Source: Candidatus Sigynarchaeum calidifontis (lineage in GTDB: Archaea; Asgardarchaeota; Lokiarchaeia; Sigyniarchaeales; Sigyniarchaeaceae). From it: DNA of 56,437 nucleotides. Below the pieces are notes generated by a model. It was given only the letters and a program-made list of their open reading frames with translations. It had not been told where the DNA came from and did no database searches. A program made the position numbers and the translations under genes. Position 1 is the stretch's first letter. Every line of letters starts with the position of its first letter. Shown in pieces: positions 27,326 to 48,729 of this stretch. The DNA lies in contig JAUQYZ020000229.1 of assembly GCA_030587475.2 (NCBI GenBank), forward strand, positions 1-56,437, read 5' to 3'.

Positions 27326-29527
27326 TCAATTAATTTTTACATTCATGCTGTTTTTTTTCTCATCTTTAACGATGTAAAGCTTCCCGCCGACTACTTCCAT
27401 CTTGGCCGAGATATCTCCTTTCAATATCATCTCGTAGATAAGCTTCTCGGCTTCCGGCAAAGTCATGCCTAGCTTTTCAGCAAACATTTCAAGCGGTACC
27501 GAGCCGGCCTTTAGTAACTGCGTTACATACTTGCGCTTGAATATCGCTTTTTGGACGGATGCAGGCACTTTTTTCATGTTCAAGGCTTTCTTTAATGCCT
27601 CGTATTCACCAGACTGGTACGCATCCATGATATTGCTGATGATCTTGTTGAATGATTGGCCGCAAGACAATGCACCAAGTAATGACTTCATCTTGGGATG
27701 CACTGCTTCGGGCATGTCCGTCACGATTATTTCTCCAAGCAACACTGCATCAATCAAGAGTAAAAAAAAGACGAGATTATTGATAGCTTGGTTATTCGGT
27801 TTGGGCGATTCAAGCTCAAGAGTTAAAAATTCGACAAGTATTTTTCCAATAATTGCGGCGAATCTTGGATCCTTGTTAACGAGGTAGTTAAGGATCTTGC
27901 GCGTGCGTTCGATGGCAAAGTCGGTATCGCTTGCTAGCTTTTCTTTAAGAAAATTATGTAGAACCTCTTCCCGTTTTACTTGAGACGCGCCCATGATGAG
28001 CGATGCCATGTGCATAAGGGTTTCGAATTGATCATTGTCATCTTGCTTCATGGCGTCCGATAATAATTCTGAAAGTAAATCCGTGTACGCTGTAGGATTG
28101 TGAGCAGCGAGATACAGTATTATATCTATGGTTCTTGATTCGGGATTTATTTTTTTAAGCTTTTCTAATTTGTTGACGAGAACCTTGTAGATTGATGGTA
28201 AAAGACGAGGTTTATCGATGATCGTGAGCAGAGCCGAGAGAACACCATCAATGTTAGCTTCGTATTTGGGATTAAGCACCTTGTCGAGTTCTTTTAAAAG
28301 ATTGGGCACGATTGCCTCGACCTTGGCATCACTTGGAACGAGAGCCGAGGCGGGTTCTACCGCCTGTGCAATGACCTGGGCCGCCGGCGCGGGCACCTGG
28401 GCAGGTACCGCCCCCGGGGCGACCACCTGGGCCGCCGGAATCACATCCAAGGGCGGAACCCCTAGAGGTTTTACATCAGCGCCAGGTTCCTTTTTTGCAA
28501 ACCGCTCGCTCAAGATGGAAACAATCTTCTCACCTAACGCGATGATCTTTGGATGTTGCTTTCTCTTGTTGATCCCGAGATCAAACAAAATGGACTTGAG
28601 CGTGCGATCGAGGAATTGCTCGCTCGCTTGTACCACTGGATCAAGGTTGTCCACTAGCACGGCCAAGCCTAATTCTTGTAATTTTTGAATAATGATTGAA
28701 TCCTTTTCGTCGATGATCATGATATCCGTGAAATCCTTTATCTTACTTGCAAGAGTGTACAAAGATGCGTCAATATTAGTTTTTTCGAGGATTTCTCGCT
28801 CTACAGCAGGGATAGTTCTATCGTTCCAGAAAGGAGACAAGACAGCGATCTTCGCGTCGATTTTTTTAACCGCTTCAGTGAACGAATAACATCGAGCGAG
28901 CAAGTGGAGGGAAAGCAGGTCAGTCGGAACGATGAGCACGCCTTGCGATCGCTCCATGGCCTTGATCGATTCGTCGCATATCTTGAACTTGGCGATTTCC
29001 TCGATATCGACAATACCAGTAATCATCGCGCCATTTTCTTTCTTTTTTTCGTTCTCTTTCATTATGATATATTGGCGAACAGGAATTTCGACGCCGTCGA
29101 CCTTTATATGCAAGACACGTCCTTCCTCGAACAAGGGCAGCATCGAATTGCCATCGAAAATGGTCTTAACGGTCTCTTCCCATGTCCCCATCAAGCCCTT
29201 AAGGGAAGAGTTCAAGCTCGTCATGTATTTGGTGATCAAGTAGTTTAACGTGGAGATTTTAAGAGGGTTATAAAATTCCAAAAATTTTCCAAGTGTTTCA
29301 AAGATGCTCAAGGATTCGATATGGTTTTTTGCCCTAGTTTCTAGGAGATTCGTGAATTCCAAGCGATACGTCGCCGCCTTGGCTGGATCTGGGTGATAGA
29401 GTTGAAAATCGAGCATGTTACTGCATATCCACGTGACCGGGATATCGTCCCTATCGATGATTAACTTCACGAACGGGCTCATCTTGTGCCCGAGGACGAT
29501 GATCACGAGGTTTTTTTGTGGTGGCAT
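27326..29527 (-). CDS. Degenerate CofD-like domain, Pro/Ala linker, helical solenoid and C-terminal PCI-like winged helix
   Basis: N-terminus as in 24567..25667. C-terminus VPLEMFAEKLGMTLPEAEKLIYEMILKGDISAKMEVVGGKLYI matches the PCI winged-helix pattern (L..A..L.....E.E..I..MI..G.I.AK). Confidence 0.65.
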   Translation of the reverse strand: MPPQKNLVIIVLGHKMSPFVKLIIDRDDIPVTWICSNMLDFQLYHPDPAKAATYRLEFTNLLETRAKNHIESLSIFETLGKFLEFYNPLKISTLNYLITKYMTSLNSSLKGLMGTWEETVKTIFDGNSMLPLFEEGRVLHIKVDGVEIPVRQYIIMKENEKKKENGAMITGIVDIEEIAKFKICDESIKAMERSQGVLIVPTDLLSLHLLARCYSFTEAVKKIDAKIAVLSPFWNDRTIPAVEREILEKTNIDASLYTLASKIKDFTDIMIIDEKDSIIIQKLQELGLAVLVDNLDPVVQASEQFLDRTLKSILFDLGINKRKQHPKIIALGEKIVSILSERFAKKEPGADVKPLGVPPLDVIPAAQVVAPGAVPAQVPAPAAQVIAQAVEPASALVPSDAKVEAIVPNLLKELDKVLNPKYEANIDGVLSALLTIIDKPRLLPSIYKVLVNKLEKLKKINPESRTIDIILYLAAHNPTAYTDLLSELLSDAMKQDDNDQFETLMHMASLIMGASQVKREEVLHNFLKEKLASDTDFAIERTRKILNYLVNKDPRFAAIIGKILVEFLTLELESPKPNNQAINNLVFFLLLIDAVLLGEIIVTDMPEAVHPKMKSLLGALSCGQSFNKIISNIMDAYQSGEYEALKKALNMKKVPASVQKAIFKRKYVTQLLKAGSVPLEMFAEKLGMTLPEAEKLIYEMILKGDISAKMEVVGGKLYIVKDEKKNSMNVKIN
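28374..28438. repeat. Short GC-rich direct repeats encoding the PA(A)QV linker
   Basis: acctgggccgccgg at 28374 and 28425, with a partial copy near 28395. Confidence 0.7.
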
Positions 29528-37720: not shown

Positions 37721-40700
37721 CTATTTCTTTATGACCTCCAGCAAAACGGGGCTAGCCCGGCCGCGGGCTTCCGGGTTGTACATCGCATAGACTTCCGTGC
37801 CCGCGTGGGTGCCAGAGAATGCGCGGGAAGCGATCAGCGAGTAATCAAACGAGCAGCTCGCCGAGCGGGGATACAACACGATCTTTTCCGCACTCCGCGA
37901 GAAATAATCGAAGGACAAGTTGCCTTGCATCGACGCGTCGAACGCCTCGACGTCGAGCCCGAACCCGGCGGGAATGCGTTCCTCGATGACGGCGCATTGA
38001 TCGATGCCTTGGGCTGCCGTGACCCTCACCGAGACGTTGATCGTTTCGCCGATGCGTGCCGTCTTGCTGGAGTGGACCCGCTCGATCGTGAACGCGCCTT
38101 GCCCGGGCAAGCGTTCTTTTGACCATATCTCCTCGGAGAGCTGGTATTGCACCTCCCGATCGCTCTTGACGCGGATTTCAACGTCGTTTTTACCTGGAAC
38201 GAGGAATTGGGTCACGTTCATATCGCGCAAGTTGACGAATTCTTCCGTGATGTTCGATGCATCGACATGCACGCGCCTCGAATGGCCGTTCACGAGGATC
38301 TCGCCGTTAACAGCGGGATCGCTCTCCTGGTGCAGCGCGAGCACGGCCTCCACGACGCTTGCCGTAGCCATGGTCGTCCCCCAACCGCCGTTCGCGGCCC
38401 GTGCACCAAGGATCCAGCCCAGGCAGCCTTGTAAATCTTGATCTAGGCCCGTCGCGTGTTGAAGGATCAAGAAATGAAGGACCTTGGCCGTCGCATCAAC
38501 TTTCCCGCCGAGTGCCGACCCGGCATTCCAATACTTGCCATTCCCGATCTTCACGAGCCGGTCCCGTATCCTCTCGATGCATGGGTTCTCCGGGGAGAGC
38601 CGGCTCATGGCCAGGCCGGCGATGGCCAGGGCGTTCGGATCGTCCTTGATCGAGTCCAATGCGATCCCGATGAATGATATCCCTTTTTTCACCATCGAAT
38701 CGAACTTCACCCTCCAATCGCCGGTTTCGGAGATGCACAGGAGCAGCCAGGCCGTCATGCCCGCCTCGTTCAACGACAAGGCATCCTTGCCCCAGACCTT
38801 GTCCCACTTGAGGGCTTGCTCGGGATACCACGAGCCGTTGGCTTGCTGCCTCCCGGCGATGACCTCGAGGGCATCGTTGATGACACCTTGTGGGGCGTGA
38901 AAACCAAGTGCCTTCATCTTCAGGAGCCCACGTAAAACGTATGCGGTCATGAAGAGGTTCGTCTCGTCATGTTCCCACCAGCCCCAGCCATTGTCGGCGT
39001 GGCGGAAGGAAAGCAGCCGCTGGAGACCCTTTGCCGTCATGTCCTCGCATACCTTCTTGTATCGGGGCGTGAGGCGGTGCCGTGCCTGCAACGCCTCGAA
39101 CACGAGGAGGTTCGGTAGCACGGACGACATAGTCTGTTCCACGCAGCCATGTGGGTATGCCAGCATGGCCTCGAGGCCGTCGAGTGCCAGGGACGACCGG
39201 TCGGGGATGATGCTGAGGCGCGCGTAGTGTGCCATCTCGCTAGGCGCGACATCGATGGCGAGCCTTTCGGGGGTCGATTGACCGCCGGGGATGGAGCCCC
39301 GGGTTATCTTGATATCAGGTTCCCCTTCCGGATGGACGAAGATGACCTGGTCGACCACGTCCTTGTAGCCCGGGCTGGCCGCCGTGAACACGAGATGCTT
39401 CTCGCCGCAAGACGTGGCATGTACGGTCCACGAAACTCGCTCGACCGCGTTGCTGTCCACGTGGATCTTTCCCGCAAGGGCGGACGTGATAGCAAAACCT
39501 TCTGCATCGAGGGACACATGGACGTCCATGGCTCCGGCGGTCCGATTGGTCACGACCGCGCTGACCATCACGATGTCGTTGTAGACCAGGTGTGGCGGTA
39601 TGTCGGGTTGGATGAAAAATTCCTGGCGCACGAGGATTTTCTTCGTTGCCATGCCAGCATCGCATGCTTTCGACGTGGCCTGGACGACGAAATCTTGCTG
39701 CGTGATCGTGTCCGGCAGCTTGAAAGAAATGGTTGCCTGGCCACCATCCACGATGGCTCGCGGGTTCCAATAGCCGCAATCGGGAAAATACGTGCGAACC
39801 GTGACGACTGGTCCATGGTCAGTTTTTTTTGCACTAAATGGGGTGGGGGTTGGGCGACCGCCACCTACGTCTGTCATGATCATCGTGTATTTCGGGTAAC
39901 CCACGACGACCGGGATGAAGAATCGTGGGAATTCATTCGTGGCTTGATCGCTCACGAGCGTGTCAGAAAGTTGGTCAACGCATATGATCGATTCGAAATC
40001 GACTTGCTTGAAAAGAAATACGCTGGCTTGATCGATGCGGCTCTGGCGTCGCATGTTTTCATAATAATCTAATACTTTTTTCTCGTCACTTGCTGCTTGA
40101 AAATGGCCTGGAACGGCCAGTATCACCTTGCCAGGACATTTATTGAGGTACTTGTCCACGTCGTTCAAGACTTCCACGAATTCTTGCGTGGCTCCGATAG
40201 ACTTAATGAATTTGTTGAAATCCTCTGGAGGAATGTTGCACCGCAAGGAGCGAAATTCGTGGGTGCTCCAATACAAGACTGCTTCTAGGATACCAGGAAA
40301 CTCGTCTTCGAGTGCTTGAACCAAGGGATTGCCCGGGGCAATCAAGAACTTCCACGTTTCCACGATGCAAGGAAACCATGCTAGCTGCTTGGCGAGTTCA
40401 TCCATATTCTTGTATTTGGCGCGTTGATAATCCAGGATGAACGAGATCACGGCATCTGGTGGTTGGTTCCCGCACGTGCAGCGCAAGCTCGTGAGGTGGT
40501 GCTCGATGAAATCGCTGGAGCAAAATCCGCTCCGCTCCACGAGCTTCACGAGGTGGAGCACGTCGCTGGCTGTAAAAATGCCGGAAAATGCGTACTGGTC
40601 GATGTTCTTGATGATGTCGCCCAGGAAAAAATCGAGTTCCCTCGAGAGGTCCGAATACAGCGATGTCCACGAGTCTTGCACTGCTATGGCATATCTGATG

Positions 40701-42304
40701 GGCTGGCAGATCTCGGAGAAGGGCAAAGGAACGTCCCGGCCGCGCACTGCCCTGTCGACGAGCAAGGCGCCGACCTCCAGCTGCTCGTGATCGTGAGGCG
40801 GATCAACGTGGATCGCGAGGGAGATCTGGGCACCGGGACGCGATTCGCCTGGGCCGCCAACGTGGATGCCGATGATCCTATCCTTAGGAAACACGAAGAG
40901 CAGGCGACCCTTGGTCGATAAATGACCGTTCCGTTCGACCCGCAAGATCGTGATCGCGACCAAGCCAGACGCGTCCGGGGGCACGTCGACTTGCTGGATT
41001 GCTGAATGGCTGGGATAAAGGACATTCATACCAATGACGCTGCCGTCGGCGGTCCAATAGATATAAAGAGGCCTCGTGTACCACATGGATCCCGGATCCT
41101 TGGTAGTGAATGAGATGTTACATTTACTCGGGTCATGTGCGTCGATGCTCGCGTTGAAGTCCCACGCGTGGCTCTCAGTGTCGACATCGGTTGGCCAATG
41201 CACCCGCTCGCGGTAAGTGGCCGGCGCTTCGGGTTCCTCCTGTTTCCAAACACTTACTCGCACGCTCGTGGTGGCGATCCTTCCCGCGGCGTCGCGACCA
41301 TTGATGTGAACATCGTATTCGCCAGGTTCGAGCGCTGTTGTCGGGATGCGAGCCGTGGCGGTGCCATCTTCCCGCGTGGAGAATTCGATCTCGGCCACCG
41401 TCCCCGACGCGTTCGAGACCGTCGCGGTACAACGACCGCCCGTGACAGGATCCCCGTAGTAGTACCGCGCGAGCACGGGGATCTCGATGTCCTTCCCGCG
41501 CTCCGCGTCTGCACTAGGTGGTGCTTCGACGACGAGCGTCGGGGGGATGAAATTCTTGATCGTGATAGGTTTTTCCACGACGTGCTTGTACTCGGGAAAC
41601 TCGAACCGCAGGTTGTATGCCCCTTCCTTGATCATGAAGTCCGTTTCGATCACCAGGTCGAAGACCCCGAACTCATCAGTCGAGAGCCTCTGCCGCACCA
41701 TCTCGACGGACTGCGAGTTCACGAGCGAGATGATCGCAACAGCCCCCTTGACAGGGTTCGTGGCACCAGCCTTGAATTTCCACGCGATGCCCCTCACGTG
41801 GATTGACTGGGAGGGGCGATACTGGTCGAGATCTGTAAGTATATAGAGCACTATCTTCTCGCTCTTGCTATCCGACATTGTGGAAGAACGATAGATGTTG
41901 AACGAGTCTTGTTTCTCGCCATGCTCCACCGTTAGACTGCAGTTGTTCCAGGAATCGTGCAAGAATAACCGGCCATGCTCGTCCGTCGTCCCGCGCTCGC
42001 CGGTATTCGATCGCACTTTTGCACCGGGCAATGGGCGATAGTTGTCATCAAGCACGATGACCGAGCGTCCCACTGGCGAACTCTTTCCCGATATCGGGTC
42101 GACGACAAGTATATTAACATTTTTTTTCCAGTTCAGCAATCGCTTCAAGTGATCGGCAACTTCTTTGCATTTCTGGGGAACGTGAACCAGTGCCCCGCCG
42201 AGCACCTTCTCGACTCGCTGGTCTGGTTTCACGCGCAGCAGCTCGAAGAATTCCGAAAATTTGCTCGCAGGAACCGTGCCGGGCTTGCTATCTCGTTTTT
42301 CCAT
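37721..42304 (-). CDS. Alpha-2-macroglobulin family thioester protein, no signal peptide
   Basis: MG2 (TDLDQYRP...TDEFGVF), ARYYYGDPV, LVDRAV, VRTYFPD, LPDTIT, thioester YPHGCVEQ (GCVEQ at 39148-39134), GWGWW...FMTAYVL, GGWGTT, EERIPAGF, AMYNPE. GAGGTG lies 7 nt before ATG 42304. Confidence 0.92.
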   Translation of the reverse strand: MEKRDSKPGTVPASKFSEFFELLRVKPDQRVEKVLGGALVHVPQKCKEVADHLKRLLNWKKNVNILVVDPISGKSSPVGRSVIVLDDNYRPLPGAKVRSNTGERGTTDEHGRLFLHDSWNNCSLTVEHGEKQDSFNIYRSSTMSDSKSEKIVLYILTDLDQYRPSQSIHVRGIAWKFKAGATNPVKGAVAIISLVNSQSVEMVRQRLSTDEFGVFDLVIETDFMIKEGAYNLRFEFPEYKHVVEKPITIKNFIPPTLVVEAPPSADAERGKDIEIPVLARYYYGDPVTGGRCTATVSNASGTVAEIEFSTREDGTATARIPTTALEPGEYDVHINGRDAAGRIATTSVRVSVWKQEEPEAPATYRERVHWPTDVDTESHAWDFNASIDAHDPSKCNISFTTKDPGSMWYTRPLYIYWTADGSVIGMNVLYPSHSAIQQVDVPPDASGLVAITILRVERNGHLSTKGRLLFVFPKDRIIGIHVGGPGESRPGAQISLAIHVDPPHDHEQLEVGALLVDRAVRGRDVPLPFSEICQPIRYAIAVQDSWTSLYSDLSRELDFFLGDIIKNIDQYAFSGIFTASDVLHLVKLVERSGFCSSDFIEHHLTSLRCTCGNQPPDAVISFILDYQRAKYKNMDELAKQLAWFPCIVETWKFLIAPGNPLVQALEDEFPGILEAVLYWSTHEFRSLRCNIPPEDFNKFIKSIGATQEFVEVLNDVDKYLNKCPGKVILAVPGHFQAASDEKKVLDYYENMRRQSRIDQASVFLFKQVDFESIICVDQLSDTLVSDQATNEFPRFFIPVVVGYPKYTMIMTDVGGGRPTPTPFSAKKTDHGPVVTVRTYFPDCGYWNPRAIVDGGQATISFKLPDTITQQDFVVQATSKACDAGMATKKILVRQEFFIQPDIPPHLVYNDIVMVSAVVTNRTAGAMDVHVSLDAEGFAITSALAGKIHVDSNAVERVSWTVHATSCGEKHLVFTAASPGYKDVVDQVIFVHPEGEPDIKITRGSIPGGQSTPERLAIDVAPSEMAHYARLSIIPDRSSLALDGLEAMLAYPHGCVEQTMSSVLPNLLVFEALQARHRLTPRYKKVCEDMTAKGLQRLLSFRHADNGWGWWEHDETNLFMTAYVLRGLLKMKALGFHAPQGVINDALEVIAGRQQANGSWYPEQALKWDKVWGKDALSLNEAGMTAWLLLCISETGDWRVKFDSMVKKGISFIGIALDSIKDDPNALAIAGLAMSRLSPENPCIERIRDRLVKIGNGKYWNAGSALGGKVDATAKVLHFLILQHATGLDQDLQGCLGWILGARAANGGWGTTMATASVVEAVLALHQESDPAVNGEILVNGHSRRVHVDASNITEEFVNLRDMNVTQFLVPGKNDVEIRVKSDREVQYQLSEEIWSKERLPGQGAFTIERVHSSKTARIGETINVSVRVTAAQGIDQCAVIEERIPAGFGLDVEAFDASMQGNLSFDYFSRSAEKIVLYPRSASCSFDYSLIASRAFSGTHAGTEVYAMYNPEARGRASPVLLEVIKK

Positions 42305-42315
42305 CGCATTCCACC

Positions 42316-43431
42316 TCATTTTCCTATGAACTCGTGCAGGCTGAGCCGGTGAATCACTTGCGGGCCGTTGTCCAGGTATTCCCGGCGCTGGATCCAGCCC
42401 CTCGGGTCGCCGGACGAGGCACGGGCGATGCATGCCAGGCCGCGCCAGAGCGCTATATCCGGGCGCTCGGGAACCGTGAATTTCACGGTAGAAAGGTCGG
42501 GCAAGGCCGATGCAATGCCCTTTTCCTTGCCTCGCGATGTCCCAGACAACGCGGCACGAAATTCCCGATTCAACCGCTCTTGCCAGCCGGGGAACCGCGC
42601 GGCCGACCCCACCACGGGGATGGAATCGAGAGCAGCGATGAATTTCTTGCGGCTTGCCTCGTCTTCCAATCCGGCAATGACATCATCGATGCATTGAATC
42701 ATGGCTTGCTGGATCGGCAACCCCTCGAACCCGAAATTATCCGGATCCGACCGGAAATAGACATCGAAACACTCGTCACGCTCGCCGTCCACCGCGATGT
42801 TCTCGCCATCGGGAAGGACGTACGTCGCCCTGCGTGGCGTGGTGCTCCCGCCTTGCCCGAAGACCGAGCCAAGCTTGTTAACGAGGTCAACCGTGTATTC
42901 ATACCGCCAGTATTCACCCAGAGGGATCTTCTTGTTATTCGCGAGGAGCCGGCGGACGTATTGATATACCTTGTGGAGCGAGCATTCGAGGCTCTTGATC
43001 TCGCGCGAAAGGGGAAGACCATCGATGCACGGCACGATGCTCGTGTAGGTGTCCCCGAGCAAGGCGACGAGGCCCGTTTTCTTCCCCGTGGCCGCCATCG
43101 CCGCGTTGCTATCGCTGGCCAAGCACAACGCCGGCACTGAGAACGTCTCGAACAGGATCTCGGCTATTTTTTCGAGGTCACGGCGCGGGGTCATGTCCTT
43201 GTATAGCATCGCGACCGGGTGCTCGGTTGGATCGATGCGCATTTCCGTGTAAAACATGTAATGCCAGATCTTTTCGATGGCCGAGAAATCTTCGATGATG
43301 CCGTTCTCGACGGGATATGCCAATTTTAATACTCCAGAGAGCTGCAGTGCTTCCTCGCCCACGTAATATTCTCGGGCGTACCCGCCGATTTCAACGTCGT
43401 AATAATGGTATTCTCTCGTGAACGGGTTCAA
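42316..43431 (-). CDS. Divergent actin-family protein (Asgard actin/ARP-like), N-terminally truncated
   Basis: YVGEEA...LKLAYPVENGII...EKIWHYMFY.EMRIDP.EHP...EKIAEILFETFSVPA, YVLPDG, PER...W.G...WI.R.EY...GP.VIHR all align to actin. The phosphate-1 DxGS motif is absent. Confidence 0.9.
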   Translation of the reverse strand: MNPFTREYHYYDVEIGGYAREYYVGEEALQLSGVLKLAYPVENGIIEDFSAIEKIWHYMFYTEMRIDPTEHPVAMLYKDMTPRRDLEKIAEILFETFSVPALCLASDSNAAMAATGKKTGLVALLGDTYTSIVPCIDGLPLSREIKSLECSLHKVYQYVRRLLANNKKIPLGEYWRYEYTVDLVNKLGSVFGQGGSTTPRRATYVLPDGENIAVDGERDECFDVYFRSDPDNFGFEGLPIQQAMIQCIDDVIAGLEDEASRKKFIAALDSIPVVGSAARFPGWQERLNREFRAALSGTSRGKEKGIASALPDLSTVKFTVPERPDIALWRGLACIARASSGDPRGWIQRREYLDNGPQVIHRLSLHEFIGK

Positions 43432-47889: not shown

Positions 47890-48729
47890 ATGAACCGCTT
47901 TTCTGTCGTGTCCTTGCATTTCACGCGCGAGTGCAACTTGAACTGTTCTTTCTGTTACCGCCCTAAAGAATTGACGGGTAAAGAAAAATCATTGCCATTT
48001 TTCATCGATTGCGTGAAATACATGAAGGAACTCGCGCCGCAAGTCGCCCTCGGCGGGGGCGAACCGTTCATGTTTCCCGGGTTCATGAACACGCTGGGAA
48101 ACGAATGCAGTAAGCACGGCATGACCCTCAACGTGACGACCAACGGCACCTTGATACGCGGCATGGACAACGTGCACCTCCACCAGGCCGTCAAGGACGT
48201 GGCCATGGTGTCGGTCAGCCTCGACCACGGGAAGTGGCACGATCTCCGGGAGTACGCGTGCGTCGTCCGTCGCCTCAAGTCGGCGAAGCCCGGCTTGCTG
48301 GTCGGCACGAATTTATTACTCGAGCCGGGCTATTTCGAGGAACATGGGAAACCGCTCTACTTCACCATCGAGTGGTGCATCAAGAAAGCCCGCGTGGACA
48401 GGGTGTTCTTGTTGTACCCCAAGAACGTGCCGCTTGGTGTCGATATCGTGCAATACAAGGACTTTTTCTCGGCGATCTCGACGATGTTCCCGGGCAGCAT
48501 CTTCGTCGACGACTTGACCCGCCAGATCCTCGAGCACGGCTACCCGCCATGGAACGTGCCTTGCCACCACGGCAGGGACATCGTGTCGATCGACGAGGAA
48601 GGGGGCGTGCACGGGTGCTCGTTCGACACCGCCCCGGTGCTCAAGATGGCGGTTCCATCCGATCTGCTCGGGGTGAAGGACATCCCGTTCGAGAGCCGGC
48701 TGTCCTGCCCTTATTTGAAGCGTGACTGA
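47890..48729 (+). CDS. Radical SAM enzyme with Twitch/SPASM-like C-terminal cysteines
   Basis: CNLNCSFC, GGGEP, TTNG, VSLD, then PCHHG...IDEEGGVHGCSF...CPY. Confidence 0.92.
   Translation: MNRFSVVSLHFTRECNLNCSFCYRPKELTGKEKSLPFFIDCVKYMKELAPQVALGGGEPFMFPGFMNTLGNECSKHGMTLNVTTNGTLIRGMDNVHLHQAVKDVAMVSVSLDHGKWHDLREYACVVRRLKSAKPGLLVGTNLLLEPGYFEEHGKPLYFTIEWCIKKARVDRVFLLYPKNVPLGVDIVQYKDFFSAISTMFPGSIFVDDLTRQILEHGYPPWNVPCHHGRDIVSIDEEGGVHGCSFDTAPVLKMAVPSDLLGVKDIPFESRLSCPYLKRD

Follow-up and report, generated by a model that had tools for sequence, protein, structure and literature searches.

Proteins of the alpha-2-macroglobulin (A2M) and thioester superfamily have a common layout of an MG-ring, a split MG6, a CUB-TED-CUB unit and an MG8 domain, as seen in human A2M (7von), A2ML1 (7q1y), CD109 (8s3o), insect TEP1 (4d94), and bacterial ECAM/YfhM (5a42) and the Salmonella protein (4u48). 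Characterised members share the CxEQ motif and an insertion at the bait position. Cleavage of this bait is the established trigger that unlatches the A2M and exposes its thioester (10.1101/2021.09.22.461418). The stretch of DNA analysed here (the window) comprises 56,437 nucleotides from the Asgard archaeon Candidatus Sigynarchaeum calidifontis, contig JAUQYZ020000229.1, and its source genome is 5.0 Mb in size and 89% complete. It carries a pair of genes, one encoding an A2M-type protein with the same layout and the other encoding an actin without its beginning. The missing part of the actin sits in the bait region of the A2M.

An actin divided between two genes

Lokiactin and the eukaryotic actins (PF00022; HC1 actin, 9wc4) have the same fold and the same subdomain-2 sequence as the window actin. 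The window actin differs from them in being divided between two polypeptides and in the decay of its nucleotide, barbed-face and subdomain-4 contact residues. An intact lokiactin of 382 residues is encoded on another contig of the same genome. The actin gene of the pair covers lokiactin residues ~56-382 (actin ~48-375), preceded by a short N-terminal extension of its own, and its product is recognisable as an actin in sequence and fold, with 37-40% identity to lokiactin. Its match to the Pfam profile begins at position 44, and its alignment to actins only from residue ~42. The first ~47 actin residues that it lacks are exactly the part carried by the A2M, where they follow MG6a, a linker and a helical insert of ~190 residues and lie ~20 residues before the MG6b strand, at the bait site of A2Ms. 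The local alignment of this piece to lokiactin scores 83, and none of 1000 shuffles scores above 48. Its D-loop reads GYPKYTMIMTDV, aligned to GYPKYTSIMTDV in the genome's lokiactin. In a six-frame search of the genome allowing up to four mismatches, this 12-mer is present only in the window A2M and in the true lokiactin.

The phosphate-1 loop region is found in the A2M, and none lies upstream of the actin gene. A frameshift or a missed N-terminal exon of the actin was considered and rejected: no actin-like sequence occurs upstream in any frame (scores 20-25), and the relatives start at the same place. On these alignments the actin is split rather than merely degenerate. The C-terminal piece has lost the equivalents of K18, Q137, D154, G158, K213 and M305, and only four of 14 nucleotide and catalytic residues, a set that includes G13, G15, K18, Q137, D154, G158, K213 and G302, are kept in the window system. 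The reconstituted actin is therefore predicted to be ATP-dead. A preliminary description of this DNA had called the actin degenerate and probably unable to bind ATP, and had placed it beside the A2M as a paralog. The loss of nucleotide residues and the pairing stand. The reason for the loss of ATP binding is different, since the phosphate-1 loop comes in trans from the A2M and has decayed, and a single actin fold is divided between the genes, with ~47 of its N-terminal residues inside the A2M, so that the pair is not a trap and a free-standing paralog.

Two further observations concern the actins of this genome. The extension that opens the C-terminal piece (window 43403-43431, minus strand) contains TREYHYY, an echo of the lokiactin TREYY motif that recurs 13 residues later, and it is retained in close relatives. 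A third actin paralog (L002:7412-8875, contig C59 of the genome) has 487 residues with a C-terminal extension and is conserved across the order.

Among related systems the split falls at varying points between lokiactin residues 53 and 71, and both pieces shift together. N-terminal pieces that end at 53 have partners that start at 56-58; ends at 56-57 go with starts at 58-61, an end at 61 with starts at 65-67, and ends at 69-71 with a start at 72. The Spearman correlation between end and start is 0.96 over 16 systems and 0.93 over eight distinct pairs, with boundaries set partly by eye and among relatives that are not independent. One actin without its N-terminus (P0167) was found in a separate search and was then located 10 nucleotides before an A2M of the actin-bait type.

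In the predicted complex of the two window pieces the score is 0.91, compared with 0.01 for the best of three controls. The mark used for this score is reached by 58 of 80 solved pairs and by two of 110 mismatched pairs, a calibration that is rough here, with alignments of our own. The model runs share at least 79% of contacts, and the pLDDT of the partner is 64-66. The actin piece in the A2M is poorly ordered and of low confidence when modelled alone, and docks into the C-terminal piece in the model of the complex. In the model the closest contacts join A2M 774-776 to partner 72-76, and A2M 800-802 to partner 23-24 and 37-39, a pattern expected of actin subdomains 1 and 2. Because the halves of a split fold can pass through their likeness to solved actin, as may be the case here, the high score speaks for fit and not for binding. 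Taken with the shifting split points, the A2M and the actin C-terminal piece very probably form a heterodimer that rebuilds one actin fold.

The thioester protein and its gene pair

Membership of the A2M-type protein in the superfamily is clear from its MG domains, split MG6, CUB-TED-CUB and MG8 (Pfam and PDB sequence matches; Foldseek E 4e-36) and from its GCVEQ motif, in which a reactive thioester may form. A model of residues 330-1527 has a pLDDT of 80.6. The TM-scores by query are 0.46-0.50 to the native forms of A2M, A2ML1, CD109, TEP1 and C5 and 0.19-0.28 to activated forms, and the model is thus closer to the native than to the activated state.

Characterised A2Ms have a signal segment or membrane anchor, while the window protein, which begins MEKRDSKPGTVPASKF, has no signal peptide, lipobox or anchor as judged by hydrophobicity. 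Its N-terminal hydrophobicity peaks at 1.23, a Kyte-Doolittle proxy and not SignalP, as do the values that follow. In 17 complete actin-bait A2Ms the N-terminal value is at most 1.44, and a signal-like segment is absent from all 17, compared with 2.4-3.4 in 11 secreted Asgard A2Ms. The window A2M is probably cytoplasmic. A longer start at ATG 42433 was rejected: it overlaps the actin gene, adds no hydrophobic stretch, and the homologue in the related genome G001 starts at the equivalent of 42304.

The secreted Asgard A2Ms (~1950-2080 residues, for example in genomes G011 and G031) belong to the same superfamily and phylum and have the CxEQ motif. Unlike the window A2M, they have a hydrophobic N-terminal segment and mostly a C-terminal hydrophobic helix, and they form a separate branch (support 100). 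This ~2000-residue class is commoner than the actin-bait class. It occurs in Loki- and Heimdall-type genomes, three of them single-contig genomes, as thioester A2Ms that are mostly anchored at the C-terminus (L050:6362-12604, L051:4489-10659 and others). Whole actins inserted in these proteins were sought, and no actin match was found inside or beside them in the loci read.

Between MG6a with its linker and MG6b, the bait position of the actin-bait A2Ms holds a helical insert, the actin piece and a flexible linker (Table 1). The helical insert is present in most members of the family. Among the matches listed by Foldseek, VIA-align and both Atlas searches there were only generic helical ones, a result that does not demonstrate a new fold.

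Table 1. Features of the split-actin and A2M gene pair (positions in the window)
Feature	Position	Strand	Remarks
Gene for the A2M-type thioester protein, without signal segment	37721..42304	-	1527 residues; Pfam TED 4e-24, A2M 2e-14, MG2 9e-10
GCVEQ thioester motif, within the TED domain (~38297-39187)	39134..39148	-	A2M residues 1053-1057
Gly/Pro-rich linker from D-loop to MG6b	39809..39865	-	Length and sequence variable across the family; low pLDDT
Lokiactin D-loop copy GYPKYTMIMTDV (actin 36-47)	39866..39901	-	11 of 12 residues identical to the genome's lokiactin
N-terminal actin piece in bait-region position, A2M residues 772-813 (lokiactin ~12-53)	39866..39991	-	Three strands, decayed phosphate-1 loop, D-loop
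All-helical insert, A2M residues ~546-730, between MG6a/linker and actin piece	40115..40669	-	Confident model
Stop codon and GAGGTG ribosome-binding motif, overlapping	42305..42318	-	From sequence; 11 nt ahead of the A2M ATG
Gene for the C-terminal piece of the split actin	42316..43431	-	TTG start, 371 residues; Pfam Actin E 9e-43

The spacer between the actin TGA and the A2M ATG at 42304 is 11 nucleotides long (42305-42315). The same junction of stop codon, ribosome-binding motif and ATG is found in two relatives, G001 and L196 (TGAGGCGG and TGAGGTGG), with a gap of 10 nucleotides, and translational coupling of the two genes is inferred from it. Promoter and terminator scans gave results at chance level, and a search against Rfam gave zero matches. 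A look for sequencing runs that could show expression listed none, which speaks neither for nor against it. The preliminary description had reported this spacing and the overlap of the TGA with GAGGTG, the retained GCVEQ and the lack of a hydrophobic signal peptide, and the coordinates, the motif and the hydrophobicity profile agree with it on all three. It had also asked whether the adjacency is unique to one genome, and the pair proves to be a conserved unit.

The search covered 400 Asgard genomes together with protein collections and metagenomes. It found 22 A2Ms with a lokiactin-type D-loop in the bait. Both parts are seen in 16 systems, one of them across two contigs, in genomes labelled Loki-, Hel-, Freya- and Heimdall- and in unlabelled metagenomes. 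Five other members are cut by contig ends or have no neighbour read, and P0173, with a changed thioester motif, has no actin partner within 6 kb. Examination of the bacterial loci and of the 150 best profile hits turned up no actin-bait A2M outside Asgard archaea, several metagenomic members being without a taxonomic label. One quick tree has a branch (support 95) with all 17 actin C-terminal pieces to the same side of it, a grouping that another quick tree did not recover, and in a quick A2M tree the actin-bait group is unresolved. A single origin is allowed by these trees with their long branches, not established.

Gene order varies, and the Hel and Freya operons hold one or two TPR-vWA genes between the partners. 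These genes, with a MIDAS-like DSTGS, are at L138:1398-2414, L139:5896-7966 and L151:9402-10418, and a TPR-like gene has the same place at L208:4989-5924. Several variants were seen. In a decayed system (L209:4139-10131), an A2M with CVDQ for CxEQ retains the D-loop peptide, and the upstream TPR gene holds a nine-residue actin-like remnant, LQLRGVLKL. An A2M-like protein at L140:4262-10287 (G050:C155) has the helical insert and lacks the signal, the actin piece and the thioester motif; it is followed by a gene for a prenyltransferase-like alpha-barrel. Two actin-bait A2Ms are enlarged (L210:1375-8324 and L211:6001-13095), one with 2364 residues and the other in two reading frames (807 and 1348 residues) with YVEQ for CxEQ.

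Conservation and the possible function of the pair

Identities were mapped on lokiactin for the 16 systems, with face patches assigned from F-actin. The D-loop half of subdomain 2 (actin 36-47) has a mean identity of 0.94 and is the best 12-residue window in the whole actin. The mean is 0.68 in the remainder of subdomain 2 and 0.31 in the phosphate-1 region. The 14 nucleotide residues average 0.26, the barbed face 0.22 and the subdomain-4 patch of the pointed face (actin 199-208 and 241-245) 0.48; outside the D-loop, identity is 0.17-0.47. In the window system the barbed face is at 0.15, the subdomain-4 patch at 0.33 and the subdomain-2 face at 0.87, and the faces of a filament are thus not retained together. 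The CxEQ motif is retained in 20 of the 22 actin-bait A2Ms.

The residues SIMTDV are conserved at 0.94-1.0 and lie outside the confidently modelled interface, an assignment that is uncertain for the unnamed residues. Because the most conserved residues are not in this interface, the models suggest that they are read by a third party. The same residues bear on whether the pair could be a structural relic, an actin copy once inserted in the bait, later split, and retained only because neither piece would fold without the other. Drift has indeed taken most of the actin to 17-47% identity, with long branches, but the best-conserved residues lie outside the interface, and the pairing persists through swaps of gene order and shifts of the split point, so a relic is very improbable.

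The reading preferred here, to which we give a probability of about 0.5, is that the rebuilt actin is a mimic that serves as bait and springs a covalent thioester trap when its D-loop is cut. The two genes would yield one cytoplasmic heterodimer, in which the A2M provides actin strands 1-3 and the D-loop from its bait region and the partner provides the remainder. The pieces would fold into an ATP-dead, non-polymerising actin displaying, in near-exact copy, subdomain 2 of the cell's own actin. Immediately behind the equivalent of Met47 the A2M chain leaves the actin, and from the D-loop tip it would pass through a short linker into MG6b. With this course of the chain, a lokiactin-recognising protease that attacked the D-loop or the linker would sever the bait, release the A2M latch and expose the thioester, to which it would become covalently bound. 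This trigger and the covalent trapping are modelled on the biochemistry of A2M and actin. Proteases attack actin mainly at the D-loop; in muscle actin, grimelysin cuts at Gly42 and subtilisin at Met47 (PMC7956362). The system is present patchily, in nine of the 400 genomes and over several classes, as suits an accessory or defence role better than a core cytoskeletal one. The preliminary description had also proposed a decoy or guard module, with a thioester protein recruited to filaments as the alternative, and had overlooked the actin piece in the bait region.

Several observations weigh against a protease trap. The known protease sites are those of muscle actin and not of lokiactin. Two members with an altered thioester motif still keep the D-loop, and in genomes G246 and G279 the D-loop of the bait has not followed a substitution in the host actin (E in the host, T in the bait). 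Circularly permuted actins of Wukongarchaeia-type genomes have a conserved D-loop and no trap, and D-loop conservation can therefore arise without a protease. The genes around the pair are housekeeping genes; the analysis identified neither an actin-cutting protease nor a parasite or defence-island context, and PADLOC, which covers catalogued prokaryotic defence systems, has no family for the A2M or the actin piece.

The main rival comes from the uneven conservation of the actin faces. A dead actin that shows only its pointed face could bind the barbed-end cleft of lokiactin and so cap filaments or place the thioester protein on the cytoskeleton, which is compatible with trapping. The pointed-face residues of subdomain 2 are 0.85 identical while the barbed face has decayed, the equivalent of Met44 is invariant, and the permuted actins share this polarity and branch beside the C-terminal pieces in a quick tree (support 88). 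The second pointed-face contact, in subdomain 4, is however poorly kept, on average and especially in the window, and a chain of 1527 residues departing from the D-loop tip should hinder docking. Docking alone also leaves the bait position and the kept thioester unexplained, and the system is present in only ~2% of the genomes searched. Filament-end docking appears unlikely on this balance.

The helical insert and the vWA proteins raise a third alternative, a switch of complement type without proteolysis, in which binding, pulling or removal of the actin C-terminal piece, by lokiactin, an actin regulator, an effector or the TPR-vWA proteins, would move the bait and fire the thioester to tag or cross-link a nearby target. 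The helical domain is at the place where complement C3, C4 and C5 carry the anaphylatoxin domain, ahead of the alpha'NT segment, and the vWA proteins inside three operons recall the factor B/C2 type of partner; a two-chain split would also make the sensor dissociable. Among the matches listed, however, the insert has only generic helical ones and none to an anaphylatoxin fold, six queries found no TPR-vWA homologue in the window genome, 89% complete as it is, and bacterial A2Ms require bait cleavage to transform (10.1101/2021.09.22.461418). Such a switch is improbable.

Two other genes of the window are of separate interest. A radical SAM gene (47890-48729, plus strand) matches models of prokaryotic viperins in part, over residues 6-113 only (E 1e-16), which may be a generic radical SAM match. 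A protein of 733 residues (27326-29527, minus strand) carries at its C-terminus a PCI domain (E 1e-6), of the kind typical for subunits of the eukaryotic proteasome lid, COP9 and eIF3.

Comparison with known systems

The permuted, membrane-anchored Asgard actins (G398 and G399, with Wukongarchaeota and Hodarchaeota labels) are also opened in subdomain 2, with the C-terminal piece before the N-terminal piece and the chain leading toward a payload. Like the window actin they keep the D-loop (0.92) and have lost catalytic residues, with the barbed face at 0.39. They differ from the window system in being one chain, opened at ~72, with a payload of a linker, a beta domain and a hydrophobic hairpin, and no A2M was found in G398 or G399. 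There are two paralogs per genome (L256:4002-6092, contig C7 of G398; L257:1-1713; L270:2885-5149; L271:1641-3902), running from lokiactin ~72-380 to ~10-75 and continuing with an acidic linker, a beta-rich domain and the C-terminal hairpin. One paralog keeps the lokiactin D-loop and the other has diverged. Neighbours are labelled Wukongarchaeota or Hodarchaeota. In P0348, a protein of 520 residues, the membrane-anchored tail of the permuted actin is fused with a small GTPase domain (58% over part of the query). Permuted membrane-anchored actins were not found in the literature searched.

A wider proposal is that the pair is an intracellular surveillance system of the complement family that guards Asgard actin, the rebuilt split actin being an integrated decoy whose D-loop, when cleaved or engaged, fires the thioester on the attacker. 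It would be one case of a wider Asgard habit in which actin is opened at subdomain 2 and the dead fold is coupled to a payload such as a trap or a membrane anchor. This proposal is tentative, standing just below an even chance. If the decoy reading is true, actin is under attack inside Asgard cells, and a decoy-based intracellular immunity that uses a complement-family protein exists among the nearest relatives of eukaryotes. If the trap is real, its covalent catch would identify the attacker and could be used as a tool, while docking, if true, would provide a new kind of filament-end binder. Both readings can be tested with recombinant protein, and under either one the natural split points show at which places the actin fold tolerates opening.

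In plant NLR integrated domains, PBS1-RPS5 and NLRP1/CARD8, integrated decoys or protease tripwires wire a copy of an attacked host target to a response module. The likeness to the window system is one of concept, with no relationship in sequence expected, and in place of NLR signalling the response here would be covalent trapping by a thioester. Searches of mostly open-access literature found no description of an actin-A2M pairing, in agreement with the preliminary description, which knew of no such operon, nor of a natural split actin, a folded host-protein mimic in an A2M bait or a cytoplasmic archaeal A2M. The thioester chemistry is of a known kind. In characterised A2Ms the bait is a disordered loop, while here it is a helical domain together with part of an actin, and it is completed by the product of a second gene.

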